A DNA stretch of 64,000 nucleotides, taken from IMG/VR virus record IMGVR_UViG_2923146907_000004; one strand, given 5' to 3'. The notes beneath the pieces are model-generated. The model saw nothing but the letters and a program-made list of their open reading frames with translations, did not search any database and was not told where the DNA came from. Origin of the DNA: an uncultured virus (IMG/VR IMGVR_UViG_2923146907_000004). Its lineage: Duplodnaviria > Heunggongvirae > Uroviricota > Caudoviricetes. Position numbers and translations under genes: made by a program. Of the stretch, positions 26,112 through 63,154 are shown one piece after another. Each line of letters opens with the position of its first letter. Position 1 is the first letter of the stretch.

Positions 26112-26599
26112 AGAAGTCATCGACCCAGGTTGTACTCGACGCAGTTCGGGAACTGCACAGCCAGCAGCAGATCGTCACTCGCCAGACCCTGGTCGAACTC
26201 ACGGGGTTGAAGCCCGGCGTTGTCGATGACCGCCTGTCCGTCCTGGTGGACGACTTGCTGGTGCTGCGCGTCGAGCGCGGAGTGTTCGTACCGGCACCGC
26301 AGTTCGATCCGCCCAGGCCGATCACTATCACGCAGATACCAGGTGGCTGGGCGAAGGTCGAGATCAGCGATGATCACGTCATCACGCTTACGCCAGCGGA
26401 GAAGCGGATGCTCGGTGAACTTCTGGCAGGTGCTGCTCAGCAGTTCGCAGCGATCGATATCGGGCATTCGAACCAGATACTGGCTGCGGAACTGGCGATC
26501 AAGATACGGAAGCTGGAAAGGGAAGTGGCAGCATTACGCGCAGACAGGACCGATGGCGACGAAGCCCAGCTTTCCCTGTCGATGGACCACATCGCCTGA
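26108..26599 (+). CDS. Winged-helix protein; candidate late-gene activator
   Basis: TRQTLVELTGLKPGVVDDRL..L..D..V.RVERGVF wHTH; occupies the Q position. Confidence 0.7.
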   Translation: MKKSSTQVVLDAVRELHSQQQIVTRQTLVELTGLKPGVVDDRLSVLVDDLLVLRVERGVFVPAPQFDPPRPITITQIPGGWAKVEISDDHVITLTPAEKRMLGELLAGAAQQFAAIDIGHSNQILAAELAIKIRKLEREVAALRADRTDGDEAQLSLSMDHIA

Positions 26600-47243: not shown

Positions 47244-49136
47244 ATGGGTATCGCACCGGATAGCATCCTTGGCGTAGCGGTGGACACCGTTACGGACAAG
47301 ATGAACGATCTTGAGGCGCTGGGCAGCAAGTACAGCGCAGAACTGTCCGCCGCGCTGGCGAAGATCGGCGACATCACGGTGGCTGACGTGCCGGCACCGA
47401 CGCGGCCGGATGCGCCTATCGCTTCGCCGCCGCCCGTCAACCTGGGCGAGCAGCCGACCTACAACCCGTCTTCGCTGGTCAAGCCGGAAGCCCCTGGCGG
47501 CCTGAACATCGACGACCTGCTGGCCGACCTGGACGTGGGCGACATGGACGACCTGCCCGACGCGCCGACCATGATCCCGATCAACATCCCGGACGCGCCG
47601 AGCATGACGGCCATCCCGGTGCCGGAACGCCCGGACATCGACACCACGGTGGAGATTCCCGACGCGCCGCAGATCGCCATGCCGGACATGGAAGCGCTGG
47701 AACAGATCCGCCTGCCGGAATTCGTGTTCCCCGAGTTGCCCACGTTCGATGCCACGCCGCCGGACGCGAGCGGGATCACGGTGCCCAACGTCTTCATCAA
47801 CTGGCTGGAACCGGAGTACCAGTCCGAGGTGCTGGACGAGTTGCAAGCGAAGATCAAGGAACTGATGGCGGGCGGCACCGGCCTGCCTGTACCCATCGAG
47901 CAGGCGCTGTTCGCCCGCTCCCGCGAGCGCGACAGCGGTGAAACCACCCGCGCCGTGCAGGAGGCGGTCGATACTTGGGCCGCCCGCAATTTCTCCATGC
48001 CGCCGGGGATGCTCGCCAGGCAGGTAGATGTGGTGCGCGAGCAAGGCCGGCTGAAGGCGGCCGAACTGAACCGCGACATCCTGGTGCAAGCGGCCACCTG
48101 GGAAATCGAGAACCTGCGCTTCGCCGTGCAGCAGGGCCTGGCCCTCGAGCAGTTGACCGAGAACATGCACCAGAACATGGCGCAGCGCCTGTTCGAGGTC
48201 GCCCGCTTCCACGCGGAAAGCCAGATCAACGTGTTCAACGCGCAGATCAGCCTGTTCAACGCGCAGAACGCGGCCTTCGAGACGCTGGCGCAGGTCTACC
48301 GCACCAAGCTGGATGCGGCTATCTCCAAGCTGACTGCCTACAAGACCGCCGTGGAGGGCCAGGTGGCGCTGGGGCAAATCAACCAGCAGCGCGTCGAGGT
48401 GTTCAAGGCCAAGCTGGACGCCGTACAGTCGAGCGTCGAGGTCTACAAGGCGCTGATGCAGGGGGCATCCGTGCGCGCCGAGACGATCAAGAACCAGTTC
48501 GACGCCTACCGCGCAGACGTGCAGGCGTATGCCGAGCAGATCGGCGCCGAGAAGGTCAAGTTCGACGCCTACGAGGCCCGTGTCAAGGGCGAGTCGGCCA
48601 AGGCGGACGTGCTCGATGCGCAGGCCCGCGCCTACGCTTCGACCATTCAGGGGTTGGCGAACAAGGCCGATGTCAAGGTCAAGGGCGCGCAGATCAAGAT
48701 GGAGGCGGCGCGCACCAAGGTGTCGAAGTTCTTGGCGGACGTGGACGCCTACAAGGCCACCCTGCAGGCCAACCTGAGCGAGGTGCAGTACAACACGTCG
48801 GTGTTTCAGGCCCAGGTAGAAGCCTGGCGCGCAGCGGCCAGTGCCAACGTGGCCGACGCCGAGATGCAATCGCGCTTTGCCGACATGAACAGCCGGACCA
48901 ACATCGCATACGCGGAAATGCAGATCAGCGAGTACACCGCAAAGATGCAGAATGCCGTACAGCAGGCGCAGATCGCCCTGGAGGCAGCCAAGGCCTTGGG
49001 GCAGTACACCGCCCAGCTCGCGGCCGGCGCTATGTCGGCGGCACATGTATCGGCCAGCATCAGTGGCTCAGGAAGTGCTAGTACAGGTGAAACAAAATCC
49101 GAAACAACTTCGACTTCTTATAATTATAATTATTGA
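47244..49136 (+). CDS. Coiled-coil virion/ejection protein
   Basis: Pro/Asp-rich N-terminus, long helical C-terminus. Confidence 0.7.
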   Translation: MGIAPDSILGVAVDTVTDKMNDLEALGSKYSAELSAALAKIGDITVADVPAPTRPDAPIASPPPVNLGEQPTYNPSSLVKPEAPGGLNIDDLLADLDVGDMDDLPDAPTMIPINIPDAPSMTAIPVPERPDIDTTVEIPDAPQIAMPDMEALEQIRLPEFVFPELPTFDATPPDASGITVPNVFINWLEPEYQSEVLDELQAKIKELMAGGTGLPVPIEQALFARSRERDSGETTRAVQEAVDTWAARNFSMPPGMLARQVDVVREQGRLKAAELNRDILVQAATWEIENLRFAVQQGLALEQLTENMHQNMAQRLFEVARFHAESQINVFNAQISLFNAQNAAFETLAQVYRTKLDAAISKLTAYKTAVEGQVALGQINQQRVEVFKAKLDAVQSSVEVYKALMQGASVRAETIKNQFDAYRADVQAYAEQIGAEKVKFDAYEARVKGESAKADVLDAQARAYASTIQGLANKADVKVKGAQIKMEAARTKVSKFLADVDAYKATLQANLSEVQYNTSVFQAQVEAWRAAASANVADAEMQSRFADMNSRTNIAYAEMQISEYTAKMQNAVQQAQIALEAAKALGQYTAQLAAGAMSAAHVSASISGSGSASTGETKSETTSTSYNYNY

Positions 49137-49170
49137 TTCTGCGGGTCACGGGACATGGAAGTTTCGTATT

Positions 49171-49521
49171 TTAAGGCTGGTTGTCTTTTTGAAGATTTTG
49201 ATATTCTTCCCAAGGTTTTTTTTCTTCGTCATACAGCTTGCTGCATGCAATGAATATCATGCGGCCAGCTAAGTTGCTCGGTGTCTCCTTTCCTATTGCC
49301 ATCATGCAATCTCTGCCTGACTTGTAGCCAAATAATCCTCTCCCAGACCCTTGTTCGACCTCTAAGAGTGCATTTGGGTATTGGCCTGCGCAAAGACTTA
49401 TCACCACCCGGGCAGCCTGATCGTTTTGCACTTCTGGCATTTTATCCAAAATGCATGTTGCATAGTCTCCTGCTATTGAAGAGGTGGAGATAATTGTCAG
49501 TAGGAACAATAAATTTCTCAC
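49171..49521 (-). CDS. Exported four-cysteine protein (moron); candidate superinfection exclusion
   Basis: GTG start with GGAG RBS; signal peptide ending SIA-GD; four Cys; AT-rich; antisense to the late operon. Confidence 0.8.
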   Translation of the reverse strand: MRNLLFLLTIISTSSIAGDYATCILDKMPEVQNDQAARVVISLCAGQYPNALLEVEQGSGRGLFGYKSGRDCMMAIGKETPSNLAGRMIFIACSKLYDEEKKPWEEYQNLQKDNQP

Positions 49522-49594
49522 AAGTACTTTTCTCCGGTTGTGCGCCCGGAATATATAGCTTTTGGTTCATTGGCGGAAAGTGGATACGCCATAG

Positions 49595-49636
49595 CCCCCT
49601 GTAGGGTTCGTCCAAAAATGAGACGAGCAGCAAGAT
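49595..49636 (+). promoter_or_regulatory. Putative late promoter 3 (ejection genes)
   Basis: CCCCCTGTAGGG-TTCGTC-18 bp-CAAGAT. Confidence 0.7.
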
Positions 49637-49670
49637 TGAATCTGTATCCAAGCCGTTTTAGAGGCATCCC

Positions 49671-51833
49671 ATGTACGGATTCAAGAAGGGCGCCAAGCCC
49701 AAGCAACGATTTGCAGATGGTGGGCGGGTGCGTGGTCCAGGCACTGGCACCTCCGACGACATCGACACCGAGGTGCCCGCGGGCAGCTACATCATGCCGG
49801 CCGATTCGACCGAGCAGATTGGGGAAGCGGCGTTGCAGGGTATGGGAGCGCCGGTCCCGGTCAGCCTGAGCAACGGCGAGTACCAGATGCCTCCCGAGCA
49901 GGTTCATGCCGTTGGCGTGCAGGCGCTGGACGCTGTGAAGAATGCCACTCATGTGCCGGTAGCCCAGCAGGCAAAAGGGTTCTCTCCGCGTAAAAGGGGA
50001 GAGAATGGCGCCGAGAAGCCGGAATTGTTCTTCGCCGACGGCGGGGTTGTCGATGAAGAGCGCAAAAAGCAGACCCGTTTCGACATCACCAACACGCCCG
50101 CCGCCCAGCGTGCCGCTGGCGTTGTGCCGGAGGCATCGTCTCCCGTAGCTACCAGCGGCTACAGTGCAGACCCCACCATGGCAAAGGCGCAGGCCAATAT
50201 CGATGCTGAACGGCAAGCGATGGCTGTGCATCGCCAGCGCACTGCGGATGCCGCGAATCTCCAGCCGGGAGTGGCACCAGGCTACAGCGACAACCTCTAT
50301 ACCGCCAACGCCCAGGCACGTTCGGATGCAGCCCGGCAACAACAGGCCATTGCACAGGCCGGACCACTGCCCGATATACCGTCGACACAAGGCTTCGCGC
50401 CATCGCGACAAGGTAATGACCCAGCCAGAGCGGCAAGGATGCAGGCTCAGTTTGATCAACCGGTAACGGGCCCTGCTCGATCCAAAGCGGCTGGTTTCAC
50501 TCCGCAGTACCGTACTGAAGGGCCTGGCTGGCGAACCGACTCGGTTCTCCGCGGGACGGGCGACGACGTAGCGCAGCAGTGGGCATCGGGTGAGTATGCC
50601 CGTGGCTTTGGGACCGGCGTGCGTGGGGCGCTTGCGGCGGTTCCCGCAGCATTCGCTGATGCTGGAGAGGATGTCGGTCGATTGGCGGAACCGGTGATCA
50701 ACTTCGGTAAAGGGCTATTCGGATGGGATGACACTCCGCCGGCGCTTCGTGGTCAGCAAGCAGCCCAGGGTGCAGCGGCGCCAAGTTCCAGTGCTGCGCC
50801 CGGGCGAGGCCAGGTGTTGCCGGCTGCTGGTGCGCCAACCGGAGCGCTGGAGTCGGCGGCGAATACTGGAGCTGCTATGCCAAGCGCCGGTGGCCCGGAC
50901 CTGCCCAACAACGTGACGCGGGTGGGCAACAGCTTCTCCGGCACAACAATCCGCCCGGGCTACACCGTTAACGGGGAAGCTCAAGCTGCGGGGTTCGCCC
51001 CAGGTGGTCAGCGGAGTGCTCAAAACCAGCGCGCAGTGGAGAACCTGCTGGCCCGAACGCCTGATGTGGGTATGGGGTTCAGGCCGAGTTCTGTCTCCCA
51101 GGTACCGCCGATGGCCCCGGACGCGTTGGCTCAGTACAACGCCGGTAACTCCGGCGCGCCTCGGGTAACCGTGGTTCCCGATAGCTCTCGGGCCGATAGC
51201 GTTCGCCAGGCCGCCTTGAATGCAGCCTCAACACCTTATCGCGGTTCGCCGAACGGGCAGTTAACTGCCCGCCAGATCGACAACCTGTTCGGGCTCCAGC
51301 AGAGCGATGACCGCAATGCTACGTCCCTGGCGAGCACTCGGGCGAATAACGACACGGCCTTGGTGCGGGAGCAGGTGCAACAGCAGGGCGCAAATCAGCG
51401 CGCGGCTCTACAGGAAATGGGGCAGGGCGCGCGCTTCCTCGCAGCCAACGAACTCGATCGCCAGCGCCTGGCTGGTGAGCAAGAGGCCAGGGGTTTCCAA
51501 ACCCGCGCCGCCCAGCGCATCGAGAAGCTGTACGAGCAGTACGACAAGGCTGCTCCCGAAGACCGCGCCGCGATCGCCGAACAGATTCGTGTGCTTGCTG
51601 GTAAGGACGCTCCGAATCGCTTCACCGTGGTACCTGGCGGCCAGGAGTACGACCCGCAGTCCATGCAACTTCTGACGCGCCCTGCACGAGTACTCAACAA
51701 CCAGACCGGCCAATTTATCGACCAGCAAACGCAGTCGGCGCAACCCGTCGCTCCGCGAACTGGTGAGGTGCGAAGTGGATACCGGTTCAAGGGAGGGAAC
51801 CCTGCCGACCAGAATAATTGGGAGAAGGTGTAA
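49671..51833 (+). CDS. Putative DNA ejection / internal virion protein
   Basis: FADGG..GPGTGTSDDI N-terminus; A/Q/G/P low complexity; ends GYRFKGGNPADQNNWEKV. Confidence 0.7.
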   Translation: MYGFKKGAKPKQRFADGGRVRGPGTGTSDDIDTEVPAGSYIMPADSTEQIGEAALQGMGAPVPVSLSNGEYQMPPEQVHAVGVQALDAVKNATHVPVAQQAKGFSPRKRGENGAEKPELFFADGGVVDEERKKQTRFDITNTPAAQRAAGVVPEASSPVATSGYSADPTMAKAQANIDAERQAMAVHRQRTADAANLQPGVAPGYSDNLYTANAQARSDAARQQQAIAQAGPLPDIPSTQGFAPSRQGNDPARAARMQAQFDQPVTGPARSKAAGFTPQYRTEGPGWRTDSVLRGTGDDVAQQWASGEYARGFGTGVRGALAAVPAAFADAGEDVGRLAEPVINFGKGLFGWDDTPPALRGQQAAQGAAAPSSSAAPGRGQVLPAAGAPTGALESAANTGAAMPSAGGPDLPNNVTRVGNSFSGTTIRPGYTVNGEAQAAGFAPGGQRSAQNQRAVENLLARTPDVGMGFRPSSVSQVPPMAPDALAQYNAGNSGAPRVTVVPDSSRADSVRQAALNAASTPYRGSPNGQLTARQIDNLFGLQQSDDRNATSLASTRANNDTALVREQVQQQGANQRAALQEMGQGARFLAANELDRQRLAGEQEARGFQTRAAQRIEKLYEQYDKAAPEDRAAIAEQIRVLAGKDAPNRFTVVPGGQEYDPQSMQLLTRPARVLNNQTGQFIDQQTQSAQPVAPRTGEVRSGYRFKGGNPADQNNWEKV

Positions 51834-54800
51834 TGGCCGATACCAGCAAGCCATGGGAAGAGTTCGCGTCTCAACAGTCAGTAACTGGTGGCGAGAAGCC
51901 GTGGGAGGAGTTCGGTGGCGAGACGAAGGAGGAGGGAAGAGGCCTGATCGGGCATGCGCGCGACCTTGGCCTATCCGTGGCCAAGGGGGTGATTGGGGTT
52001 CCGGAAGCGGCTGTTGGCCTCGCTGATATCCCAACAGAGGGCCGCGTAGGTAAGTTCCTCGAGAACCAGGACGGCATGCTCGGCTTCCGGCCCCGGGAGG
52101 CGAAGGATTTCCTGAGTGATCTGCACACCGATCAGTACAAACAGCAACAGCAGGACTTTCAGGATGCTGATGGCGTCGTAGACAAGACGCTGCATGCTGT
52201 ACAGAACCCGTCGATGGTCGTGAACACCGTAGCGGAGTCTTTGCCTTCCATGTTGGCGGGGGGCGCGGTCGGTCGTGGCGTTCGGGCGCTGGCTCCAGCG
52301 TTGGCACCTGTGGCAGCCGGCGCGGCTGGCGAAGGGGCGGTTATGGCTGGTCAGCAAGCAGAGCAGATCCGCCAAGAAACTGATGACGGCTTGCTCACTC
52401 CGGCGCAGTCGGGAGCTGCGGTGGCCACTGGTGTGTTGGGAAGTCTGTTTTCCCTTGCCGGCGGTAGCTTGGCCAAGAAACTGGGTATCGGTGATGCGGA
52501 TACCCTCCTCGCTGGTGGTGCCAACCCAGGACAACTGGTCAGCGAGCTGGCGTCCATGCCGGCGAAGAGCATTCCGCGGAAGGTGATAGAGGGCGCAATC
52601 TCCGAGGGCTTCCTTGAGGAACTGCCACAGTCCGCATCTGAGCAGGTTCTGCAAAACCTGGCGCTGGGACGGGACTGGGCCAGCGGCCTGGATGAAGCGA
52701 TGGTAATGGGAACGCTGGCCGGGATGGCCATGGGTGGGCCGGCGGCGGTTCTGCATGGCGGTCAGCCGGCAGCGTCCCGTGGCCTGGCGGATGCGGACGC
52801 TACCTTCGAGAGTACCCCGGGCCTTGAGGGGCAGACTGAGACGACTGCGCCACTGGCACTCCCAGCTCCAGTGTATGAGGCTGGTTCTGACGGCCAGGTC
52901 CGGACCACGGTCGACCAGAACTCCGCTACCCAGGCACAGCGTCAGCAAGAGGCTGAACGTCTGGACCGAATCCGTCGAGGTGAAGTCACCGATGTGACTC
53001 CGGTCCCGGCGGCCCCAAAGCGCTCCGAGCAGATGGGTCTGGACCCGGCTGCTGGGCCACTGTCTGGTGCTGCTGCGCAGGCCGTGGACAGTGGCGCAAC
53101 TGACCAGATGGTGCAACAAGCCGCGCTCCAGCAGGCAGCCGAGGAGGCGCAGAAGAGCGGCAGGAAAGGTGATCAGGTCAACCCGGAAACCGGTGAGATT
53201 ACAGCGGAGCAGGGTGATCTGCTGGCATCCGATCCTGTCACCGATCTGCAGGGCCGCCTGGAATTTGTACGCCGGCAAGCCCGTGCCACCGGATGGGACG
53301 CGAAGAAAATCGCCGAGCGCGATCGCTTGCAGGAAGAACTGGACAAGCTCGCGCCACCGCCGGATGCCGGCTACATGCAGCGCGTCGGTGAGCGCGTGAA
53401 GCGTATCGAGGCCGCGCAGAGCCCCGATGAAATTGCCGCGATCCTCGCCGAGGATCAGCAGGATGAGCAGCGCCACCAGAACGCCGCTGGCCGGGTGGAG
53501 CTAGCCGCCCGTGCTCGCGGCTTCGCCCTGGACCAGGCGGCGCAGCAGCAAGCCCCGACGCCAATCGGTGTGCAGGACGACATCCAGCAGGCCCAAGGCA
53601 AGGCTGACACGCAGCAGGCGCAAGCCGCACAACCGGTTGCATCGCCGGCGCCGGCAGCGGAATCCGTACCGGCCGCGTCTGCGCCTGCGATAGAGGCCGC
53701 GAAGCCGTCCAACCTGAAAGACGCCATCGCCAAGGTGCGCCAGGACAAGGCGCAAGCGCCGAAGGCCGAGCCGGTCCAGCAGACCGCCGCACCCGCCGCC
53801 GATCAAGCACGCTACGCCGACCTGGCGCAGCAGTTCAATGCCATGGTTCCGCAGTTGAAGGCGGCGCGCGAGGGCGGCAACACTTCCGAAGTGGAGCGCT
53901 TGACCAATGCCATGCGCCCGCTGGACACCGAAATGCGCCAGCTCCAGGCGCGCGAAACCAAGCGCACCTTGGATCTTGGCCAGCAGGCATCCAAGGCGAA
54001 GCTCGAGCAGGAACTGTCCGGCGAGGCCATCGGCACCCGCCGCCGCCCGAGTGAGCACGCGCCGGAGAAGGGCCTGTACTGGGAAAAGACCGGCACCAAT
54101 GAATGGACCGGGCGCGGTGCGTGGTTCCAGAAGGGCAAGACCCGCACCGACGCGGACATGGCGCAGTTCGGCGGCACGCTGGTGATGCCGTCCGAGCAGG
54201 CCGCGCAGAAGGCCCCGAGCATCGAAGGCAAGGACATCGGCGAAGGCTGGGCGGAGTTCAGCAAGGAATCGGGCACCGCGGGTATCCCTCGCGCCGACAT
54301 GCCGCAGATCAAGGCCGAGCACCGCGGCGCGATGGTGAACTTCCTGAGCGCTCGTGGCGTGCAGCATCAGGAAGAGACAGTTCCCGCAGATACCCTCAAA
54401 CCGACGCAGGCGGAGTTCAGCCGGGATAAGGTGGCGAAGGCCAAGGGCTTCGAAGGTGGCAACCGCTCCATTCTGGTGTCGCGTGACGGCCATGTGCTGG
54501 ACGGCCATCACCAGTGGATGGCGGCCCGCGACAACGGCGAAGAGGTGAAGGTGATCCGCCTGGATGCCCCCATCCGCGACCTGGTGAAACTGGCCCACGA
54601 ATTTCCCAGTTCCACCACCGATGCCAGCAGCGGGCAGGGCGCCACGGTTGAAGCGAAGCAGGTGAGGCCCAAGCCTGAGCCAGCAGCTCCTGATGTGCCT
54701 AAGAAGAAGCCGCGCGGCGTGCTGGCAAAGAGGTTACAGGCCGAGGCCCAGGCCCGCGCCGAATACTTCACCCCCGGCAACGTGGTGCGAGGTTACGGCG

Positions 54801-57800
54801 CCAACTACGACAGGGTTATCAGCTACAACCCGACCGAATCGGGAAGCTGGACCGTCACGGTGCGCAGTGTACGCAAGGAAGGCGACACCTGGGTGGATGT
54901 CCCGGGCGAGAGCGAGCGCACTCACATGACGGCGCCGGATGCGCGCGACATGAAGCGCGGCCCGGCCGGCCGTATCGCAACACAGGGGGCGCCAACCGCC
55001 GATGAGTTCCCCTTGAAGGAAGCCGCAGCCAGCTACTCCGGTATCTCGAACAGCAGCAGCCAGCGAGCGAAGTCCGATGCGGATGAGTTCCAGACCTACA
55101 TCGACGTGGCCCGCGACGCGGGCGCTGTCGTGGCACGCACCGATGCTCAGCAGGCGGCCGTGGAGCAAGCCACACGAGAATTGCGGGCCGATTACCTGGC
55201 CCAGTACCGGCGCCTGATGAACGTGCGCGCCGGCACCTACAGCGGCTATGTTGTCGGGCGTTCTGGACTGAACAGCAAGCAGGCGGACAGGCGCAACAGC
55301 GCCTACGACCGCGCCATCGACACATTCGTGGCCTGGCAGAAGTCCAATCAGGATCGCGTGCGCCAGGCGGCACTGGACGCCCGTACCGACGAGGAAAAGG
55401 CGGCAGATCGCCAGGCCGCCGAGCAGGCCCGTGCCGACAAGGCGCAGCGCAAGGAAGACGGGGACCGCAGCCTGATGCGCAGGATTCTGTCCTGGAAGAA
55501 GGGCAGCGAGCCGGTGGCGATCACCAAGACCGCGCACCTTGCCGGGGTGAACTTCGGCAAGGATGGCTACCCGACCAGCATTAAGTTGACGCCGACCGAT
55601 GGCAGCGTGCTGACGAGCGACAAGTTCGACCTAGCGACGCTGTTCCGTGAGCGCGGCATGAGCGTGCCGGAGTCGAAACGCCGCGTGCGTGAACTGGTCG
55701 ATTTCGTGCGTGCCGAGGATGCAGCCCGGCCCCAGTCCGAACCGGCAGAGGCACCCAAGCCCGATCCCGCGCAGCCCAGCGATTCGAAAACCCCGACGCT
55801 CGATGAGCATGTAGCCCTCATGCAGCGCGCGCGCAGTGGGGAGGCGACCGCCGACGAGTTCCGCCAGGCATTCGAGCGTACGCAGAACGCCCGCGACGCC
55901 CTGGTGGCCGAGCTGGGCACTATGAAGAAGGATGAACTGCTGAAGTCAGGCGGCTACAGCTTCTTCCACCGCTACCGCAACGAGAAGAAGGCAGCGATTG
56001 TCGATGCCCTGGCCGGTCGCGTGTTGGAGGAATTTGCGCTGGGCCGCAGCTACGGCCCGAGCAGCTACGTGATGTCGGCTGCTGGCCTCGAAGCGCACCG
56101 CCAGGCCAAGGCCAGCGCGCTGGCCGAGCTGGTGGCGAACACCACCGACGACGACATCAAGGCGCACGCCGCCGAGGTCGCCGAGGCGCAGCAGGAAATC
56201 CAGGCCCGCCGGGCAGCGCAGCAGAAGGCTGTCGCCAACCCGCAGACCCTCGCCGAGTTCCGCCAGGCAGTGAGCTACAACATGGAGACGCACGGGGAGT
56301 CCCTGCGGGAGGCGTTCATGCGCCTGACGCCGGAACAGCGTATTCGCTACGACGAACTGGAGGCTGAGAGCACCAAGGCCCTGCGTGAGCAGGCCAAGGC
56401 ACAGGCCAAGACCCGCGTAGCCAGCGCCGGGCAGACTACGGCCGGCGACATCATCGAGACGAAGCACACCAAGCACGGGCATGACCTGTTCGTGGTCCAA
56501 CTGGCCGAGCGCGTCAGCCGTGAGGACTACGACACCCTGAACAATTCGGCGAAGCGGCTGGGCGGCAGCTACAGCAGTTATCGTGGGAATGGCGCCGTCC
56601 CCGGCTTCCAGTTCCGCACCCGCGAGGCGGCCGAAGCATTCCGTAAGCTGGTGACAGGCGACACCGCCGACGCGCAGGCCGTTGCAGAAGCGCGCCGCGA
56701 CGCCTTCGAGGATGACCGCAGTCAGGGCGCCGCCGAGCGACTGCGCACCATGGCTCAGGCCCTCAACGAGCGGGCCGATGAAGCGCTGAATCGCGAGCGC
56801 AAGCAGAACACCGAGCGCCGTGCGCGGATGGCCGCCCGCGCTGAGGCCTCTGCGCGGTCCGACAAGGCACTGGCCGCCACCATGAACAACCTGGCCGATG
56901 CCATCGAGGGCGGCAAGGCCAAGTTCCTGGACACCGTGCGGCAGAAAGTGCAAGTGGAGTTCCTGGCGCGGGAACTGCGCAATGCGAAGGACGCGCAGAT
57001 TCGTGCGAAGTACCCGACTTACGGCGAGCAGGAGAAACACCGCGGCGAGCCGGTGGACGCCGAGACGGTGGACTACTCCACCTTCCCCAGCTACACCGCC
57101 ATGCGCTCCGACCTAGCGAGCCTGGCGCGCCAGATGGCGGATGTGGACGGCCTGAAGAAATTGGCCGCGCGCCTGGAGAAGGTCGCCGACGATGTGACCG
57201 AGGCCTACACGGACTGGGCCAAGCAGAATCTTCTGTCCGTCAGCCGCTTCACCCGCGGTGACCAGTTCGCCGACTTCAAGAGTCGCGAGGATGCCGAGCG
57301 TGCCATTCGCCGCTCCGGCCTCACCGGCAAGGCCATCGTGCTTCCGGTGAAACGCGGGCAGAACCGCATCGTCATGGCCCCCAGCGAAGCCATGAAGCTG
57401 GGCCTCTGGCAGGGCGACGGCGACAAGCGCATAACGCTGTCCGGCGAGTTCGGCGGCGAACTGGTGCAGGCCCTCGGCCGGCGCAGTGGCAGCAAGATCA
57501 CCGTTCCGTGGGCGCTGGAGAGCGCGCACGAAAAGCGCAAGCGCCTGGAGAGCATGGGCATCCTCACCGGCAGCGAGTACCGCTCTGCACTGCGCGAGTT
57601 CGTAGCGCTGCGCGAGGCGCCCGCCGAGCCCGACAAGATCAGGGAAATGGAACGGTCCATGATCGGCCGTCGAAATGACGGACTGGACTTCTTCCCGACT
57701 TCGGCCGCCGTCACCGAGGAAGCCGTCGACGCCGCCGACATCCAGGAAGGCATGGACGTGCTGGAGCCTTCCGCCGGCATGGGCCATATGGCCGACGCGA

Positions 57801-60800
57801 TCCGCGAGCAGACCGGCGTAGAGCCCGATGTGGTGGAGCTTTCCAGCGAACGCCGCGAGTTGCTGGAGGCCAAGGGCTACAACCTGGTCGGCTCCGACTT
57901 CATGGAGGTGTCCGGCAAGCAGTACGACCGTATCGTGATGAACCCGCCGTTCTCCAAGGGGCGCGACATCCAGCACGTACAGCACGCCTACAGCCTGCTG
58001 AAGCCCGGCGGCCGCCTGGTTGCCATCATGGGCGAAGGCGCCTTCTTCCAGAGCAACAAGGCCGCCGAGAACTTCCGGGCCTGGCTGGACGGCCTGGGTG
58101 CCACCAGTGAACGGCTGCCGGAAGGTTCGTTTATGGACCCGGCGCTACCCGTCAATACCGGCGTGAACGCGCGCATGGTGGTGATTGACAAGCCGGCAGC
58201 CGAAGAGTCGGCAGCGCCGCAGCCCGGCGAACAACCGCCCGTGCAGTACTCGTTCGCCGGCCGCAATGCCGTCGGCGCCAACCTGCATGCCCTGAGCACC
58301 GCACAGCAGCGCATCGCCATTGGCGAAAACGCCGAGGCCGTTCGCCGAGATACCGGTTGGCACCGTAGCGCTGATGGCAAGTGGCGCTTCGAAATCAGCG
58401 ATCATCAGGCCAGCATCGCCGTGGCCGGTGAGACTGCTGGCGCCATCATCAATATGGCCCACCTCAATGCCATCAACGACGAGCGCAGTCGACCGACCGT
58501 CGGCGATGTGCTCAACCATCCTCAACTGTTCGCTGCATATCCTGACCTGCAGCGTATCCCGGTGGCAGTGATGCCAGAGGGCATCACTGCGCTGGCTCGC
58601 CTACGTCGGTTCGCCACGGGTAACCAAGTTGAGGTTCAGGCGAACATGCCGCGCACCGAGGTTGCCTCGGCGATCCTGCACGAACTCCAGCATGCGATAC
58701 AGATCCGGGAAGGTTTCGCCATGGGTGGCTCGGCCAGGGCTTTCGTCAGCAACTTCGACAAGACTGGTGCGGCGACCTATCGTCGTTTGGCTGGAGAGGT
58801 GGAGGCGCGCAACACGCAGGCTCGGCTGAAAATGACGCCGCGCCTGCGCCGGGACATCGCACCCGATGAGTCGGCGGACATCCCTGCAAGTCAGGTGCTG
58901 GTGTCGTTCAATGGCCGCGACATCGAGAATGGCCCGTTGCCGCAGAACCTGACGGGGCGTCCGCCGATGACCTCGCAAAGCCTGGTTCGTGCTTTCGACC
59001 TGCAGTTCCCAGCCCTGGGCCAGGCTGTGCGCAAGATGCTGAAGCGCGGCAAGGAAGGACAACGGGGCGGCTTGGTGGTGATCGACAGCGCCGACCCGTT
59101 GCGCATCGCGCACACCTACGCGCGGAAATCCGGTACCGCACTGAGCGATGCCGTTCAACTGTTTGAGGATGGCGGGCGCATCAATGGCTTCTACGATGCC
59201 AGATCAGGTCTAACTTTTCTGGTCGGCCCGAACCTGAATCCGGTAACCGCACCGGCCGTGGTGCTTCACGAAATGGTTCACGGCCAGCAGCGGCAGAATC
59301 TCGACCAGGCTGCCCACGCCATGCTGATGAATCGCGGCAACGTGCGGAGCGCCGAACTGCGCACCTTCCTGGACCGTGTGGCCAGCCGCATGATCGAGGC
59401 CGGCGAGAGCCGCAACATGAAGGAGGCCGCTCCGTATATCGTGGAGCAGGCTGTTATTGAAGGGCGAGAGCAGGGGTTCGCCGAGGCTGATAGCCGGTTC
59501 CTGTCCTGGGTAGACAGTGCGCTGGGCAAGCAGGTGGGTGACTTCCTGCGTAGGTTCCTGGCCAACATCCGTCAGTGGACGCTGCGCCACGGTCTGCCGG
59601 TTGGCCGTATCAGCGTGGACGATCTGGTGCGATATGCGATGGCTGGCGTGGAAAGCGCCGCCGAAGGCCGGGTAAGGAGCGACGGCCTAGCCATGAGCCA
59701 GGACGACATGCGAAAGGCGCGCGTGCTGCAAGGCCCGCCGGTGGCCATCCTGGAGGGAAATGAAGCACCACAGGGCTTCGCTGCGGTTCGCGAGTGGGCG
59801 GCGAAGCTATTCGAGTCTCAAGGTGGCAAGGCAGTGAACCCGGACCTGGGCGACGTGGTGCTGGATATGCGCGCTGTGCGCGACTCGATGGCGCATGGCA
59901 AGGCCAACCCATACAAGTTCTCGGCGTTCGCGGCCGTCAAGGACGTGCTGGAGCGAGGTGTGGTGGTTCACCGCGCGGACTATGAGAAGGGGGAGAGTTT
60001 CTACGTGTCGGCGCCGGTGGTGATCGACGATAAGGATGACATCGTGACTGTGTTGGTGCGCCGCGATCCGAACATGCAGCGCATGTATCTGCATTCGGTG
60101 GCCACAAAAGAATATCTCCTGAACCGTCGAGTATCCGGTGCTGATGCCATGATGGCAGCGCAGCCTTCCGGCTCGTCCAGTTCAGGAGACGTAGCCAGTG
60201 TACTCCAGCGGCTGCTGACCGCAAGCCTGAATGAACCCGAAGGTCCGCAGTTCAGTCGCTCCGGTCTGCGCGAACTCACCAGCAAGGCTACCGCCGAACT
60301 GAACAAGACCTTCAGCGCTCCGGGAGGCCTGTCCTGGTGGCACAAGACCATCGGCACCATGTACAACCTCGCAGAGCGTTCCCCGGCATTCAAGCCGGTC
60401 TTCGAGTCGGCGCAAGGATTTATCGATGACGTGAGCTATTACGCCAGCGATGCGGCTGATCTGGCGCCGAAACTGCTGCCGAAGCTGGAAACCTGGCGCG
60501 ACATTGCAAAGTCCCCGGTGGGCGCTGAGGACAACAAGGCGGTGGCCAAGCCGGTATTCGAGGGCACGCTGATGTGGGCGCGCGACGTGGACGGCAAGCC
60601 GGTGCGCGTCGATTCGCTGGCTGAGCGCGCCATGCGTCTGACGGCCGACGAGAAGGCGGACATCCTGCTGAAGCAGGGCAAGATTCCCGAGGGACTGCTG
60701 CGCGCCTGGCGCGGCCTGAGCCCCGAGCAGTTCGCCAAGATGATCGACAGCCGCTACGAGGCGCAGATGCTCAAGGCAGGCATCGTCTGGACCGACGCTG

Positions 60801-63154
60801 AGCTGCGCGACATATGGAAGCTCAACGATGCTCAGGTCGCGCTGTACCGCGAGTTCCGCGCCGCCACCGACCGTAGCCTGGACACCATGGCCCGCGCCGA
60901 CATGCTGCGCTTCGGCGGCGAGGATGTGAAGGAACTGCGCGACCAGGTGATGGACGCGGCCGATGCGCAGGAGGGGGCCGCGATACTGCGCGACCACCTG
61001 GCGCAGATGGCTGATGCATGGCCGGAACGCGCCACGAACCTGCTGAACCTGGCACACGGCATGACGGATCGCGCCGAGAAGGTCGCCCAGTTGCAGGGCG
61101 AGGGCTATGCACCGCTGTCGCGCTTCGGCAAGTACACAGTGGACGTGGTGGGTCAGGACGGTCAGCGTGAATACTTCAGCCTGTTCGAGACGAAGCGCGA
61201 GGCCAACCAAATGGCTGAGCAGATGCGTGGCGCGTTTCCTGGCGCCACCGTGAGCCAGGGCACCCTGTCCGAGGAAGCGTACAAGCTATTCGCCGGCATC
61301 ACACCGGAAACGCTGGAACTGTTCGGCAACGCCCTCGGTTTCGACTCACAGGGCGATAGCGCACGTGATCAGGCTTTCCAAGACTACCTGCGCCTGACAA
61401 AGACCAACCGCAGCGCAATGCGCCGGCTTATTCACCGAAAGGGCATCGCTGGTTATAGCGAGGACGTAGGGCGGGTACTGGCCTCGTTCGTATACTCCAA
61501 TGCGCGGCAAACCGCCGCCGGTCTGCACATGGGCGACCTTTCCGAGGCTGTGAACGGCATCCCGCAGGCGCAGGGCGAACTGAAGGACGCCGCGGTACGG
61601 CTGGCCGACTACATCAAGAACCCGCAAGAGGAGGGGCAGGCGGTGCGCGGACTGCTGTTTGCGCAGTACCTCGGCGGGTCCGTCGCGTCAGCCTTCGTCA
61701 ACATGACCCAGCCGGTCCAAGTGACTTTTCCCTGGCTGAGTCAGTATTGCGGGGTGAAGCGCGCTGCGGCGGAACTGGGGCGGGCAGCACGACAGATGGC
61801 GCAGCGCTCCTATCAGTTCGAACCGGACCTGGCCCGGGCATTAAAGCGCGCAGAGGATGATGGGGTGGTGTCCCCGCAGGAGGTCCACCAGTTGATGGCG
61901 CAGGCCCGCGGCAGCGGCTCGCTGCGCGCCGGGGACGGGACGCGCTTGGGTGATGCTCGAGCACTTGCGTCCAACAGCGTGGCGCGCCTGTCGATGGCCT
62001 GGGGCAAGTTGTTCGGCGCCGCAGAGCAGATCAACCGCCGCATGACCTACATCGCGTCGTATCGCATCGCCAAAGCGCAGAACATGGCCAATCCTGACGA
62101 GTTCGCACGCCGGGCCGTGCGCGAGACGCAGTTCGTATACTCCAAGGCCAGCAAAATGCGCTGGGGGCGTGGTGCCGTCGGCGGCACCTTGATGACCTTC
62201 AAGACGTACAGCGTGGCCTATCTTGAGCTGATGCATCGCTTGTGGAATCAGGGTGAGCCTGGTTCGCAGGAGCGCAAGGACGGTCGGAAGGCTGCTGCCC
62301 TGATGATCGGTATGCTGCTGCTCGTCGGGGGCGCCGGTGGCTTGCCGTTCGCCGAAGACGCCGAAGACCTGATCGACGGTGCGGCGCAACTCATGGGCTA
62401 CAACTTTTCTACCGCGAAGGCCAAACAGGAGTTTCTTGAAAGTCTGTTCGGTCGGGTGCTTGCCGACTTCATTGATCGCGGGGTGTCCGGACTGCCTGGT
62501 GCTCCGCTCGATGTCTCAGGCCGGTTGGGCATGGGGAACCTGATTCCTGGAACCCGGCTACTCCAGCCCGCCCCCGCGAATATTCGCGATGTGCTTGAAA
62601 TAGCTGGCCCCATGGGGGACTTCGCGAATCGCATCCTTGAGGGCGGGAAAAAGATCGCCAGTGGCGACATCGGTAGCGGGTTGCTGGAAATATCCCCGGG
62701 GGCGGTACGAAACGCTGCCAAGGGGGTGGATATGCTCGCCACTGGGATGTACCGAGACACGAAGGGCTACAAGGTCTTGGATACCAACACGCTTGAGGCC
62801 GCGATGAAGATGATCGGCTTCCAGCCTGCCAGTGTGGCGACCATTCAGGAAGCCAACATGCTCAGCCAGAAGGCGAAGGCCTTCTACAACCTGAAGGCGC
62901 AAGATATCCGCAGTATGTGGGCAGCCGGCGTGTTCGAGAAGGACCAAGGTAAGGTTGAGCGCGCGCGGCAGGCAATTGTCGACTGGAATCGGCGCAACCC
63001 TGACCAGCCGATGGTCATTCGTGTTCCGGACATCATGCGGCGAGTCCGCGAAATGTCGCTTTCGAAGGATGAGCGGATAGCGAAGACAGCACCCAAAGCA
63101 ATGCGACAGCAGATGCGAGAGGATCTGGCGCGCACCCGCGCAGCTCTGGACTGA
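51833..63154 (+). CDS. Giant polyvalent ejection protein (ParB-like, adenine MTase, zincin-like, PLxRFG)
   Basis: LDGHHQW, VLEPSAG.G with NPPF, DGKWRFEISD, HELQH, HEMVH, PLSRFG; TAATG coupling. Confidence 0.88.
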   Translation: MADTSKPWEEFASQQSVTGGEKPWEEFGGETKEEGRGLIGHARDLGLSVAKGVIGVPEAAVGLADIPTEGRVGKFLENQDGMLGFRPREAKDFLSDLHTDQYKQQQQDFQDADGVVDKTLHAVQNPSMVVNTVAESLPSMLAGGAVGRGVRALAPALAPVAAGAAGEGAVMAGQQAEQIRQETDDGLLTPAQSGAAVATGVLGSLFSLAGGSLAKKLGIGDADTLLAGGANPGQLVSELASMPAKSIPRKVIEGAISEGFLEELPQSASEQVLQNLALGRDWASGLDEAMVMGTLAGMAMGGPAAVLHGGQPAASRGLADADATFESTPGLEGQTETTAPLALPAPVYEAGSDGQVRTTVDQNSATQAQRQQEAERLDRIRRGEVTDVTPVPAAPKRSEQMGLDPAAGPLSGAAAQAVDSGATDQMVQQAALQQAAEEAQKSGRKGDQVNPETGEITAEQGDLLASDPVTDLQGRLEFVRRQARATGWDAKKIAERDRLQEELDKLAPPPDAGYMQRVGERVKRIEAAQSPDEIAAILAEDQQDEQRHQNAAGRVELAARARGFALDQAAQQQAPTPIGVQDDIQQAQGKADTQQAQAAQPVASPAPAAESVPAASAPAIEAAKPSNLKDAIAKVRQDKAQAPKAEPVQQTAAPAADQARYADLAQQFNAMVPQLKAAREGGNTSEVERLTNAMRPLDTEMRQLQARETKRTLDLGQQASKAKLEQELSGEAIGTRRRPSEHAPEKGLYWEKTGTNEWTGRGAWFQKGKTRTDADMAQFGGTLVMPSEQAAQKAPSIEGKDIGEGWAEFSKESGTAGIPRADMPQIKAEHRGAMVNFLSARGVQHQEETVPADTLKPTQAEFSRDKVAKAKGFEGGNRSILVSRDGHVLDGHHQWMAARDNGEEVKVIRLDAPIRDLVKLAHEFPSSTTDASSGQGATVEAKQVRPKPEPAAPDVPKKKPRGVLAKRLQAEAQARAEYFTPGNVVRGYGANYDRVISYNPTESGSWTVTVRSVRKEGDTWVDVPGESERTHMTAPDARDMKRGPAGRIATQGAPTADEFPLKEAAASYSGISNSSSQRAKSDADEFQTYIDVARDAGAVVARTDAQQAAVEQATRELRADYLAQYRRLMNVRAGTYSGYVVGRSGLNSKQADRRNSAYDRAIDTFVAWQKSNQDRVRQAALDARTDEEKAADRQAAEQARADKAQRKEDGDRSLMRRILSWKKGSEPVAITKTAHLAGVNFGKDGYPTSIKLTPTDGSVLTSDKFDLATLFRERGMSVPESKRRVRELVDFVRAEDAARPQSEPAEAPKPDPAQPSDSKTPTLDEHVALMQRARSGEATADEFRQAFERTQNARDALVAELGTMKKDELLKSGGYSFFHRYRNEKKAAIVDALAGRVLEEFALGRSYGPSSYVMSAAGLEAHRQAKASALAELVANTTDDDIKAHAAEVAEAQQEIQARRAAQQKAVANPQTLAEFRQAVSYNMETHGESLREAFMRLTPEQRIRYDELEAESTKALREQAKAQAKTRVASAGQTTAGDIIETKHTKHGHDLFVVQLAERVSREDYDTLNNSAKRLGGSYSSYRGNGAVPGFQFRTREAAEAFRKLVTGDTADAQAVAEARRDAFEDDRSQGAAERLRTMAQALNERADEALNRERKQNTERRARMAARAEASARSDKALAATMNNLADAIEGGKAKFLDTVRQKVQVEFLARELRNAKDAQIRAKYPTYGEQEKHRGEPVDAETVDYSTFPSYTAMRSDLASLARQMADVDGLKKLAARLEKVADDVTEAYTDWAKQNLLSVSRFTRGDQFADFKSREDAERAIRRSGLTGKAIVLPVKRGQNRIVMAPSEAMKLGLWQGDGDKRITLSGEFGGELVQALGRRSGSKITVPWALESAHEKRKRLESMGILTGSEYRSALREFVALREAPAEPDKIREMERSMIGRRNDGLDFFPTSAAVTEEAVDAADIQEGMDVLEPSAGMGHMADAIREQTGVEPDVVELSSERRELLEAKGYNLVGSDFMEVSGKQYDRIVMNPPFSKGRDIQHVQHAYSLLKPGGRLVAIMGEGAFFQSNKAAENFRAWLDGLGATSERLPEGSFMDPALPVNTGVNARMVVIDKPAAEESAAPQPGEQPPVQYSFAGRNAVGANLHALSTAQQRIAIGENAEAVRRDTGWHRSADGKWRFEISDHQASIAVAGETAGAIINMAHLNAINDERSRPTVGDVLNHPQLFAAYPDLQRIPVAVMPEGITALARLRRFATGNQVEVQANMPRTEVASAILHELQHAIQIREGFAMGGSARAFVSNFDKTGAATYRRLAGEVEARNTQARLKMTPRLRRDIAPDESADIPASQVLVSFNGRDIENGPLPQNLTGRPPMTSQSLVRAFDLQFPALGQAVRKMLKRGKEGQRGGLVVIDSADPLRIAHTYARKSGTALSDAVQLFEDGGRINGFYDARSGLTFLVGPNLNPVTAPAVVLHEMVHGQQRQNLDQAAHAMLMNRGNVRSAELRTFLDRVASRMIEAGESRNMKEAAPYIVEQAVIEGREQGFAEADSRFLSWVDSALGKQVGDFLRRFLANIRQWTLRHGLPVGRISVDDLVRYAMAGVESAAEGRVRSDGLAMSQDDMRKARVLQGPPVAILEGNEAPQGFAAVREWAAKLFESQGGKAVNPDLGDVVLDMRAVRDSMAHGKANPYKFSAFAAVKDVLERGVVVHRADYEKGESFYVSAPVVIDDKDDIVTVLVRRDPNMQRMYLHSVATKEYLLNRRVSGADAMMAAQPSGSSSSGDVASVLQRLLTASLNEPEGPQFSRSGLRELTSKATAELNKTFSAPGGLSWWHKTIGTMYNLAERSPAFKPVFESAQGFIDDVSYYASDAADLAPKLLPKLETWRDIAKSPVGAEDNKAVAKPVFEGTLMWARDVDGKPVRVDSLAERAMRLTADEKADILLKQGKIPEGLLRAWRGLSPEQFAKMIDSRYEAQMLKAGIVWTDAELRDIWKLNDAQVALYREFRAATDRSLDTMARADMLRFGGEDVKELRDQVMDAADAQEGAAILRDHLAQMADAWPERATNLLNLAHGMTDRAEKVAQLQGEGYAPLSRFGKYTVDVVGQDGQREYFSLFETKREANQMAEQMRGAFPGATVSQGTLSEEAYKLFAGITPETLELFGNALGFDSQGDSARDQAFQDYLRLTKTNRSAMRRLIHRKGIAGYSEDVGRVLASFVYSNARQTAAGLHMGDLSEAVNGIPQAQGELKDAAVRLADYIKNPQEEGQAVRGLLFAQYLGGSVASAFVNMTQPVQVTFPWLSQYCGVKRAAAELGRAARQMAQRSYQFEPDLARALKRAEDDGVVSPQEVHQLMAQARGSGSLRAGDGTRLGDARALASNSVARLSMAWGKLFGAAEQINRRMTYIASYRIAKAQNMANPDEFARRAVRETQFVYSKASKMRWGRGAVGGTLMTFKTYSVAYLELMHRLWNQGEPGSQERKDGRKAAALMIGMLLLVGGAGGLPFAEDAEDLIDGAAQLMGYNFSTAKAKQEFLESLFGRVLADFIDRGVSGLPGAPLDVSGRLGMGNLIPGTRLLQPAPANIRDVLEIAGPMGDFANRILEGGKKIASGDIGSGLLEISPGAVRNAAKGVDMLATGMYRDTKGYKVLDTNTLEAAMKMIGFQPASVATIQEANMLSQKAKAFYNLKAQDIRSMWAAGVFEKDQGKVERARQAIVDWNRRNPDQPMVIRVPDIMRRVREMSLSKDERIAKTAPKAMRQQMREDLARTRAALD

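Follow-up and report, generated by a model that had tools for sequence, protein, structure and literature searches.

A short peptide at the N-terminus of a giant virion protein recurs in the tail of a small four-cysteine phage protein: a candidate periplasmic decoy for superinfection exclusion

Introduction

Why should a small protein encoded antisense to the late operon of a phage end with almost the same short peptide with which the giant virion protein of that phage begins? The question is raised by a stretch of 64,000 nucleotides from an uncultured virus of the Caudoviricetes (IMG/VR record IMGVR_UViG_2923146907_000004), which we call the window. A preliminary description of this locus had interpreted the small protein as an exported copy of a docking peptide, by which a lysogen would jam the assembly of the DNA conduit of related phages, and had proposed to look for co-variation between the tail of the small protein and the N-terminus of the giant protein across relatives. 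Here we report that the two termini do co-vary, class by class, and that a third module, the C-terminus of the protein encoded between them, changes with them. The earlier interpretation is thereby partly supported: its comparative part stands, and exclusion itself stays a prediction. The reading that we favour, with a probability of about 0.55, is that the small protein acts as a phage-encoded periplasmic competitive decoy for superinfection exclusion.

Results

The motif in the window

The elements on which the argument depends are the following (ORF, open reading frame; aa, amino acids):

49171..49521, minus strand: small four-cysteine protein, 116 aa (ORF), with a PF28034 / VF_A0006-like domain and a C-terminal tail; the proposed decoy
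49201..49218, minus strand: tail motif KPWEEY of the small protein, following the domain's last conserved cysteine and its LYD
49671..51833, plus strand: gp58-like protein, 720 aa, phrog_11341, with an N-terminal GPGTGTSD motif
51728..51927, plus strand: junction cassette, consisting of the gp58 C-terminus and the N-terminal motifs of the giant protein
51833..63154, plus strand: giant protein, 3773 aa, a virion protein by annotation of its homologues
51848..51865, plus strand: first N-terminal KPWEEF of the giant protein
51896..51913, plus strand: second N-terminal KPWEEF of the giant protein

In the six-frame translation of the window KPWEE occurs at exactly three sites, namely the tail of the small protein and the two N-terminal copies of the giant protein. 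The small protein, which has a GTG start, begins with MRNLLFLLTIISTSSIAGDYATC and ends with the stretch CSKLYDEEKKPWEEYQNLQKDNQP. The gp58-like ORF ends with GYRFKGGNPADQNNWEKV, and its stop codon overlaps the ATG of the giant ORF (TAATG, with the ATG at 51833), the N-terminus of which is MADTSKPWEEFASQQSVTGGEKPWEEF. The preliminary description had reported an AT-rich, antisense, signal-peptide-like protein with EKKPWEEY at 49201-49224 and a giant protein that opens with two KPWEEF copies directly after the upstream ORF; the sequence and the coordinates agree with these statements. The 6 kb around these elements are 95-99% identical to F116-like temperate podophages of Pseudomonas aeruginosa, genus Hollowayvirus (F116, LKA5, H66, phiC725A and E220 among them), and all 38 matching records for this region are Pseudomonas phages.

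Co-variation of the small-protein tail with the giant N-terminus

The small protein has five 5-mers in common with the six-frame translation of the window, where shuffled copies have 6.0 on average; 72% of the shuffles reach the observed count, so that one common 5-mer is not in itself significant. When KPWEE[FYW] is specified beforehand as the motif, it is obtained in 1 of 400,000 composition-preserving shuffles. The significance of the motif likeness comes from co-variation across relatives.

We compared 19 loci from bacterial genomes (Comamonas, Delftia, Acidovorax, Lautropia, Accumulibacter and several Pseudomonas) and 66 from viral contigs, numbered with the prefix L. They were searched for with the pattern ATC[IL]L[DE]K[ML]P, and the sample is for this reason biased towards that subfamily. 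The loci gave 53 tail-giant pairs, 42 of which are distinct; those left out of the pairing for a missing giant N-terminus were mostly short contigs, together with L006 and L012. Each pair was scored by the best ungapped BLOSUM62 segment between the tail and the first 70 residues of the giant protein.

Over the 42 distinct pairs the mean score was 41.1 for own pairs and 20.4 for cross pairs, and the summed own-pair score of 1726 was not reached in any of 20,000 permutations, the maximum of which was 1158. On inspection of the aligned segments, a motif common to the tail and its own giant protein was found in 39 of the 42 pairs, falling into at least 14 classes, so that the co-variation anticipated by the preliminary description is indeed present. 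The pairs without a common motif are L016, L034 and L075, the last being an artefact of start-codon choice and a duplicate of L020. Since related loci are not independent, the comparison was repeated with one pair per class: the own giant protein was the unique best match in 14 of 14 cases, and none of 100,000 permutations reached the observed trace.

The classes are KPWEE[FY]/GPWxxY, DLFDEFG, LAxEFGL, NFFDQFD, FDPSTA[KR]P, PFxGxLDGE, NPFxDPxYG, WWKxxxxPV, DWExG, DWxQ[FY]ELV, IDxFL, SEIExAL, [ST]YE[ED]A[FY]GL and WLDxxSTxV. Examples of tails with the tandem motifs of their giant proteins are:

L008: tail DLFDEFGI; giant MADLFDEFGI...DLFDEFGL
L020: tail NFFDQFD; giant NFFDEFD...NFFDSFD
L011: tail NPFADPNYG; giant NPFTDPDYG...NPFADPDYG
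L074: tail WWKKNSTPI; giant EWWKQGSTPV...DWWKQGSTPV
L031: tail VDWESG; giant VDWESG...PDWEAG
L072: tail TYEEAYGLP; giant ISYEDAF...ISYEDAFGLKP
L080: tail TKWLDGVSTVV; giant NWLDQASTPV...SWLDKGSTLV

The arrangement of the genes is conserved as well. In 37 of 39 pairs the giant gene is found upstream of the small gene, in the opposite orientation and at a median distance of 2.3 kb, and 16-17 of the 19 bacterial-genome loci are part of the same phage cassette. In the window the motif is written AAA CCT TGG GAA GAA TAT in the small gene and AAG CCA/CCG TGG GAA/GAG GAG TTC in the giant gene, that is, with different codons at most synonymous sites. Across pairs, identical residues have identical codons at 134 of 258 positions (52%), against 116.6 expected from shuffling among loci. 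From the opposite strands and the differing codons it follows that the likeness is maintained at the level of the protein and does not stem from recent copying of DNA.

Some host or source records contain two prophage cassettes (L010/L011, L060/L072, L014/L017 and L046/L074). The motif classes differ within L010/L011, both from Delftia acidovorans NBRC 14950, and within L060/L072. The pair L014/L017, both from Pseudomonas paralcaligenes MRCP1333, has related but not identical classes, and L046/L074 have the same one, WWK.

A third module in the gp58-like protein

The gp58-like protein was recognised across loci by its N-terminal G[PS]GTGTSD, and its C-terminal 20-35 residues change with the class of the giant protein. 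The module of the window and the correspondences between module and class are:

51774..51830, plus strand: C-terminal module of the gp58-like protein, SGYRFKGGNPADQNNWEKV, of the class found with PWxx[FY] giants
G[YW].F.GG[DN]P.....W..[VA]: PWxxY giants; window type, L015, L021, L038, L039
AEVEQTA.ARGIS.DEVI.RL: LFDEF giants; L008, L017, L022
AL..NP..AAEFD.K[YF]G: FFDxFD giants; L007, L020, L043, L055, L067
[FY].ALP.G..Y..DG...R.K: WWK giants; L013, L074

Among the 17 loci with all three parts the mapping of module to class is one-to-one in 15, the exceptions being L016 and L034. The C-terminus of this very ORF had been named as the docking partner in the preliminary description, and its switching together with the motif accords with that proposal. 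Within the PWxxY class the gp58-like proteins cannot be aligned except for their last 19 residues, which indicates a module grafted on diverse bodies. Of about 220 tails of small proteins, a single one (P0077) is similar to a module of the gp58 type; the tails, being almost never gp58-like, copy the peptide of the giant protein, i.e. the ligand side, and not that of gp58. We also considered the gp58 C-terminus as a third copy of the peptide (NWEKV compared with PWEEF, AAEFDQKYG with NFFDQFD) and rejected this, the likeness being weak and missing in two of four classes.

Modular tails and motifs of foreign classes

Homologues of the small protein align up to ...C..LY(D/N)E and then diverge. A recognisable core was found in 141 of 152 listed small proteins, 17 of these 141 having PWxx[FYW] in the tail; further tail motifs include NFFDQFD, LFDEF, FDDLIP, PFxGxLD, FDPSTARP and IDRFL. 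In the long-form homologues a near-constant body, made of the four-cysteine domain and a helical extension, is followed by tails as different as NPFADPNYG, DWWKRDAVPLN, PFNGKLDG, TYEEAYGLP, FDPSTAR, TKWLDGVSTVV and SEIEEAL. A constant body with differing tails argues that the body does not read the motif.

Two further patterns concern the relation between tail and giant protein. L015 (Acidovorax metagenome-assembled genome, MAG) and L016 (Comamonas MAG) have an identical small protein and an identical gp58 C-terminal module, and their giant proteins begin with a PWxxY-type and an ISYEDAF-type N-terminus, respectively; judged from these sequences, L016 looks like a natural recombinant, whose giant protein has left the class covered by its own decoy. 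In addition, five tails with a known giant protein contain two motifs (L011, L015, L055, L062 and L077), and in all five the motif of the own class comes last and one of another class comes first. The first motif belongs to a class that heads the giant proteins of other phages: SEIEEAL of L077 scores 48 against the L062 giant, and the WLD motif of L062 scores 45 against the L080 giant. An extra motif of a foreign class suits the exclusion of foreign phages and not self-assembly.

Junction variants and the giant protein in Hollowayvirus

Among Hollowayvirus genomes the junction occurs in two variants. Variant A, with ...NNWEKV followed by KPWEEF twice, is found in 10 distinct phages, and variant B, with ...EYEALPKGTQYMKDGQLRVKG followed by MADTWGENDKIV..DFGANDEVV, in 15 distinct records, most of which come from one isolate series. 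Six of the 10 variant-A phages have the small gene, as does the rearranged record Atpa001; the 15 of variant B all lack it. It occupies a variable site:

49085..49631, no strand: variable insertion site between the gp57-like and gp58-like genes

This site is empty in F116, H66 and D14I, and in Epa33 (variant A) and the variant-B phages it holds a membrane protein of 63 aa, with a signal or transmembrane segment at the N-terminus and a transmembrane segment at the C-terminus (L003 3703-3894, plus strand; L091 2671-2862, plus strand). The loop KYGVDESI of that protein could be compared with WGENDKIV / FGANDEVV, and we considered it as a mimic of variant B; this was rejected, because the identical protein is found in Epa33 together with the KPWEEF junction.

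In a block-wise comparison, the 200-bp junction cassette at 51728-51927 is the sole A/B-specific difference of the late region (32-64 kb) apart from the insertion site of the small gene; the early region is mosaic, without an A/B pattern. A receptor of the peptide would accordingly be in the cassette itself (gp58 C-terminus), or not be encoded by the phage, or differ between the variants by point changes only.

The tandem KPWEEF is kept in the giant proteins of F116, H66, D14I and Epa33, all of which are without the small gene, and the motif consequently belongs first to the virion protein. That the giant is a virion protein follows from database annotation, its H66 homologue being recorded as 'verified by mass spectrometry' and its Epa33 homologue as 'structural protein 5'. 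It contains the NF032893 PLxRFG 'tail-700' domain at residues 3091-3758 (785.4 bits against a cutoff of 100), LPD23 (69.7 bits), LPD3 (47.7 bits) and the methyltransferase domain MTS (23.3 bits against a cutoff of 23). It also matches the DarB-like phrog_10089, and its residues 103-522 match phrog_2206, the N-terminal part of N4-like virion RNA polymerases (E 1.1e-11).

The preliminary description had called the small gene a moron. In Hollowayvirus this label is appropriate, as the gene has a deviant GC content, is on the opposite strand and is present or absent among close relatives: its GC is 0.44 against 0.64 in the flanks, within a trough of 42-49% over 48950-49699 that is flanked by 61-69%, and the giant gene has about 60%. 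In most other phages the gene has native GC.

Further observations were made on these genomes. Atpa001 (L004, PV641718.1) was set aside, as the record appears rearranged or linearised at the junction: in it an out-of-frame fusion joins the gp58-like gene to an interior portion of the giant gene, and the sequence of the junction stands at the start of the record. In Pseudomonas stutzeri phage 8P (MT152150.1), which is more distant, the junction is matched at 26307-26494 with 69.7% identity, and for the KPWEEF class this phage might be used as an outgroup. Within the giant gene, about 460 bp (53749-54208) show no or poor alignment with all five Hollowayvirus genomes compared, whichever the junction variant, and form a second variable spot of the protein; 3' of the motifs, at about 52280-52760 (residues ~150-310), three Gly/Ala-rich hydrophobic stretches can be read from the sequence, such as SMLAGGAVGRGVRALAPALAPVAAGAAG and MVMGTLAGMAMGGPAAVLHGG, and are possible membrane-inserting segments.

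The small four-cysteine protein

Two elements at the 5' end of the small gene were read from the sequence, the gene being antisense to the late operon and equipped with its own ribosome-binding site:

49465..49521, minus strand: signal-peptide-like N-terminus of the small protein, aa 1-19, MRNLLFLLTIISTSSIAGD
49532..49535, minus strand: GGAG ribosome-binding site, 10 nt 5' of the GTG start

Its assignment to the VF_A0006-like family comes from relatives: PF28034 is precomputed on proteins 97% identical to it and is present on 64-94% of the members of its nearest Atlas clusters. The direct match to NF041602 covers residues 19-47 only and has 37.7 bits, below the cutoff of 65, and no match was obtained in PHROGs or in the Pfam copy searched, which does not contain PF28034. 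An exhaustive search returned 292 clusters at E <= 1e-3. In an alignment of 66 homologues, C23, C44, C72 and C93 are invariant, the domain spans about 80 residues and is 35-55% identical between motif classes, and the N-termini are hydrophobic and end in A-x-A. The N-terminus in the window consists of a basic residue, about 11 hydrophobic residues and small residues, followed by GDY.

The AlphaFold2 model (pLDDT 90.7) is all-helical, with two helix-loop-helix halves and a cysteine pair in each. Residues 1-20 are of low confidence (pLDDT 58-70), as expected for a signal peptide. With two helical hairpins containing four cysteines that never vary, disulfides are likely, and hence an oxidising compartment. 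No convincing fold match was found in the PDB, either with Foldseek (best E 2.3) or with VIA-align against 48,161 chains (best Z 3.5, none at 5 or above), which does not show that the modelled fold is new.

Two groups of records depart from the usual picture of the small gene. L006 (Accumulibacter MAG) has a four-cysteine homologue with the tail ...GWKPYTGDVE and neither a giant ORF nor a gp58-like gene within 10 kb on either side, so that the family is not always tied to the cassette. L005 (at ~3684; F_ET605sp/Pa1651) and JBD90, two records that are unverified or lack annotation, have a small gene of only 87.8% identity, and in L005 the tail is in a different frame from the body, through a frameshift or a sequencing error.

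Discussion

A competitive decoy at DNA entry

Direct observation provides the identity of the motif, the co-variation of three modules, the divergent synteny, and the four cysteines with a hydrophobic N-terminus. The mechanism that we propose joins to these a periplasmic location, a time of expression, a binding partner and an exclusion effect, all of which we infer. A Sec-type signal peptide would export the small protein, whose helical domain, much the same across phages, would fold with stabilisation by disulfides and display at its C-terminus KPWEEY, the copy of the tandem KPWEEF at the extreme N-terminus of the giant protein. The tandem peptide itself would be the docking signal of the injected giant protein, present with or without the small gene. 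On injection by a phage of the same class, these N-terminal peptides would have to dock to a partner in the envelope; if the resident decoy already filled that partner, the DNA-delivery apparatus would fail. The best candidate for the partner is the class-matched gp58 C-terminal module, and the alternative is a host periplasmic protein. Phages could escape by swapping the short cassette formed by the gp58 C-terminus and the giant N-terminus, and the tails of the decoys would follow.

The small protein is encoded by the phage, and a class specificity of the kind expected of an exclusion protein is found indirectly, the tail being of the same class as the giant N-terminus in 39 of 42 pairs and 14 of 14 classes. 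The diversity of the termini and their cassette-like exchange look like the trace of an arms race. With slightly less than even odds, we would extend the proposal to the whole family as a 'peptide code' of exclusion, in which tandem docking peptides of at least 14 interchangeable classes on the giant injected proteins of many proteobacterial phages, matching gp58 modules and an exported four-cysteine scaffold presenting one or more such peptides as soluble decoys would make lysogens immune to the entry of DNA from phages of the matching classes. A cassette-swapping arms race at the termini of injection proteins would then drive the diversity.

Several observations weigh against the decoy interpretation. 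The three co-varying modules are contained in one cassette of 1.5-2.5 kb, and linkage is for this reason a confounder that inflates their association. Two pairs are mismatched, L016 with a PWRKY tail and a GGDP..W gp58 module beside an ISYEDAF giant, and L034 with an FGENDAVI/IDRFL tail beside an NPFSDPNYG giant. The ALPxGxxY gp58 module pairs with two classes, WWK (L013, L074) and WGENDKIV (Hollowayvirus variant B), and the H66 and Epa33 records do not mark the gp58-like protein as structural, although they do so for its neighbours. Outside Hollowayvirus the small gene has the GC content of its own phage (mean difference -0.016, n=72) and a fixed synteny, which a function in the cycle of the phage itself would explain as well. 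The tail residues 103-113 are modelled as a confident helix (pLDDT ~90), which may pack on the body instead of hanging free. Export to the periplasm is predicted from features of the sequence. Expression in lysogens is likewise presumed: a sigma-70 scan of 48900-49900 gave no promoter-like site (nor was any terminator found in the scan of this interval), and the four RNA-library runs, being contigs, are uninformative on strand and level. X9 and X14 span the small gene at 95-99% identity, and X10 and X12 come from a strain whose prophage lacks the small gene, with 649 bases skipped and 199 other letters between.

Alternative explanations

The native GC content and conserved synteny in most phages would also be expected if both peptides docked to the same host periplasmic protein and the small protein, instead of serving defence, held or modified a host factor to the benefit of the phage itself, for example by timing lysis or by stopping progeny from re-injecting into an already infected cell. 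Such a host factor would agree with the presence of the same motif classes in phages of both Pseudomonas and Comamonadaceae, and with the finding that no other block of the late region co-segregates with the Hollowayvirus junction variants. However, variants A and B both include records that give P. aeruginosa PAO1 as the host, the additional motifs of foreign classes are hard to reconcile with self-benefit, and stopping the re-injection of siblings would still be exclusion by the same mechanism; we regard this explanation as unlikely. Less probable again is that the four-cysteine body is the receptor of the motif, a trap or sensor with its own tail as intramolecular pseudo-ligand, which would capture the incoming giant N-terminus or signal superinfection in the manner of T4 RI, a small exported antiholin that takes part in superinfection signalling in lysis inhibition. 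The similarity to RI in small size and predicted export is compatible with this idea, as is the AlphaFold2 model, in which the tail is a confident helix beside the domain. A specific binding site, however, would need to change for each of 14 classes, whereas near-identical bodies carry tails of many classes, the domain is still 35-55% identical across classes, and the small proteins of L015 and L016 are identical with different giants.

It is very improbable, in our view, that the hydrophobic N-terminus is not a working export signal and that the small protein acts in the cytoplasm on the packaging of the giant protein into the capsid, either regulating assembly or inhibiting that of a rival. 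N-terminal peptides of internal head proteins can target the capsid, as those of the T4 internal proteins do; against such a role, the four cysteines, invariant and placed in two helical hairpins, point to disulfides and so to an oxidising compartment, and hydrophobic N-termini ending in A-x-A are conserved across the family. Hardly credible, finally, is a likeness without function, due to chance or low complexity, or arising as a by-product when recombination or gene conversion takes place within one mobile cassette. A common 5-mer is indeed not significant by itself, all elements are within ~2 kb, and identical codons are slightly more frequent than expected (134, the expectation being 116.6), a value reached by 5 of 2000 shuffles. 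Against these points, the match holds for all 14 classes, with a score that no permutation attains; the two genes are on opposite strands, with only 52% of identical residues sharing the codon, and in the window a gene of 44% GC faces a giant gene of about 60%, with different motif codons. The competitive decoy is the explanation that we favour.

Implications and comparison with known systems

If the decoy is real, the specificity of exclusion would be written as a short, readable peptide, and genomes would predict which prophages exclude which phages, a matter of interest for phage therapy of P. aeruginosa and for prophage ecology; it would also explain the mosaic hot spots at the termini of injected proteins. 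The proposal offers a first functional hypothesis for PF28034 (VF_A0006-like), a family of unknown function, and points to an early step of DNA delivery in podophages with giant polyvalent proteins, namely the docking of the giant N-terminal peptides. In PF28034 / NF041602, the 'VF_A0006 four-cysteine protein' family, the same domain and four cysteines are described in small proteins of Pseudomonadota, the family having no functional annotation and its description no link to giant N-termini; a literature search found no paper on any function of it. The giant protein is a clear member of the polyvalent / PLxRFG 'tail-700' (DarB-like) giant phage proteins, and in the literature, judged mainly from the openings of abstracts, we found no description of a tandem N-terminal peptide code in PLxRFG giants or of its mimicry.

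Phage proteins of the envelope that halt DNA entry after adsorption include Imm and Sp of T4, Ltp of Streptococcus phage TP-J34 and gp15 of HK97, the target of Ltp being the tape-measure protein of the phage that enters. To our knowledge, none of them has been described with a copy of the terminal peptide of an injected protein or with class-by-class co-variation. A specificity at DNA entry that can be read from sequence would be an undescribed mechanism within the known field of superinfection exclusion.

A periplasmic protein that stops DNA entry, as the decoy is proposed to do, is HxsA, an effector that arrests the entry of phage DNA and is matured by radical-SAM enzymes (Li et al., Nat Commun 2026, PMC13128918). 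HxsA is the effector of the HXS system, a bacterial defence, and acts broadly, with a proposed electrostatic binding to the incoming DNA (PMC13128918). Unlike HxsA as presented there, the small protein comes without a modification system, and its specificity would be given by the peptide class.

The closest functional analogue is SieA of P22, an inner-membrane protein of the prophage that blocks injection. Escape from SieA maps to the ejection proteins gp16 and gp20, in their C-terminal regions, so that its target is the conduit formed by ejection proteins (Leavitt et al., mBio 2024, PMC10883804). SieA and the small protein have no sequence relation. The function of SieA is experimentally demonstrated there, at the inner membrane, whereas the decoy is predicted, small and soluble-looking, and would bring to the same step of infection a modular copy of the terminal peptide of its target.

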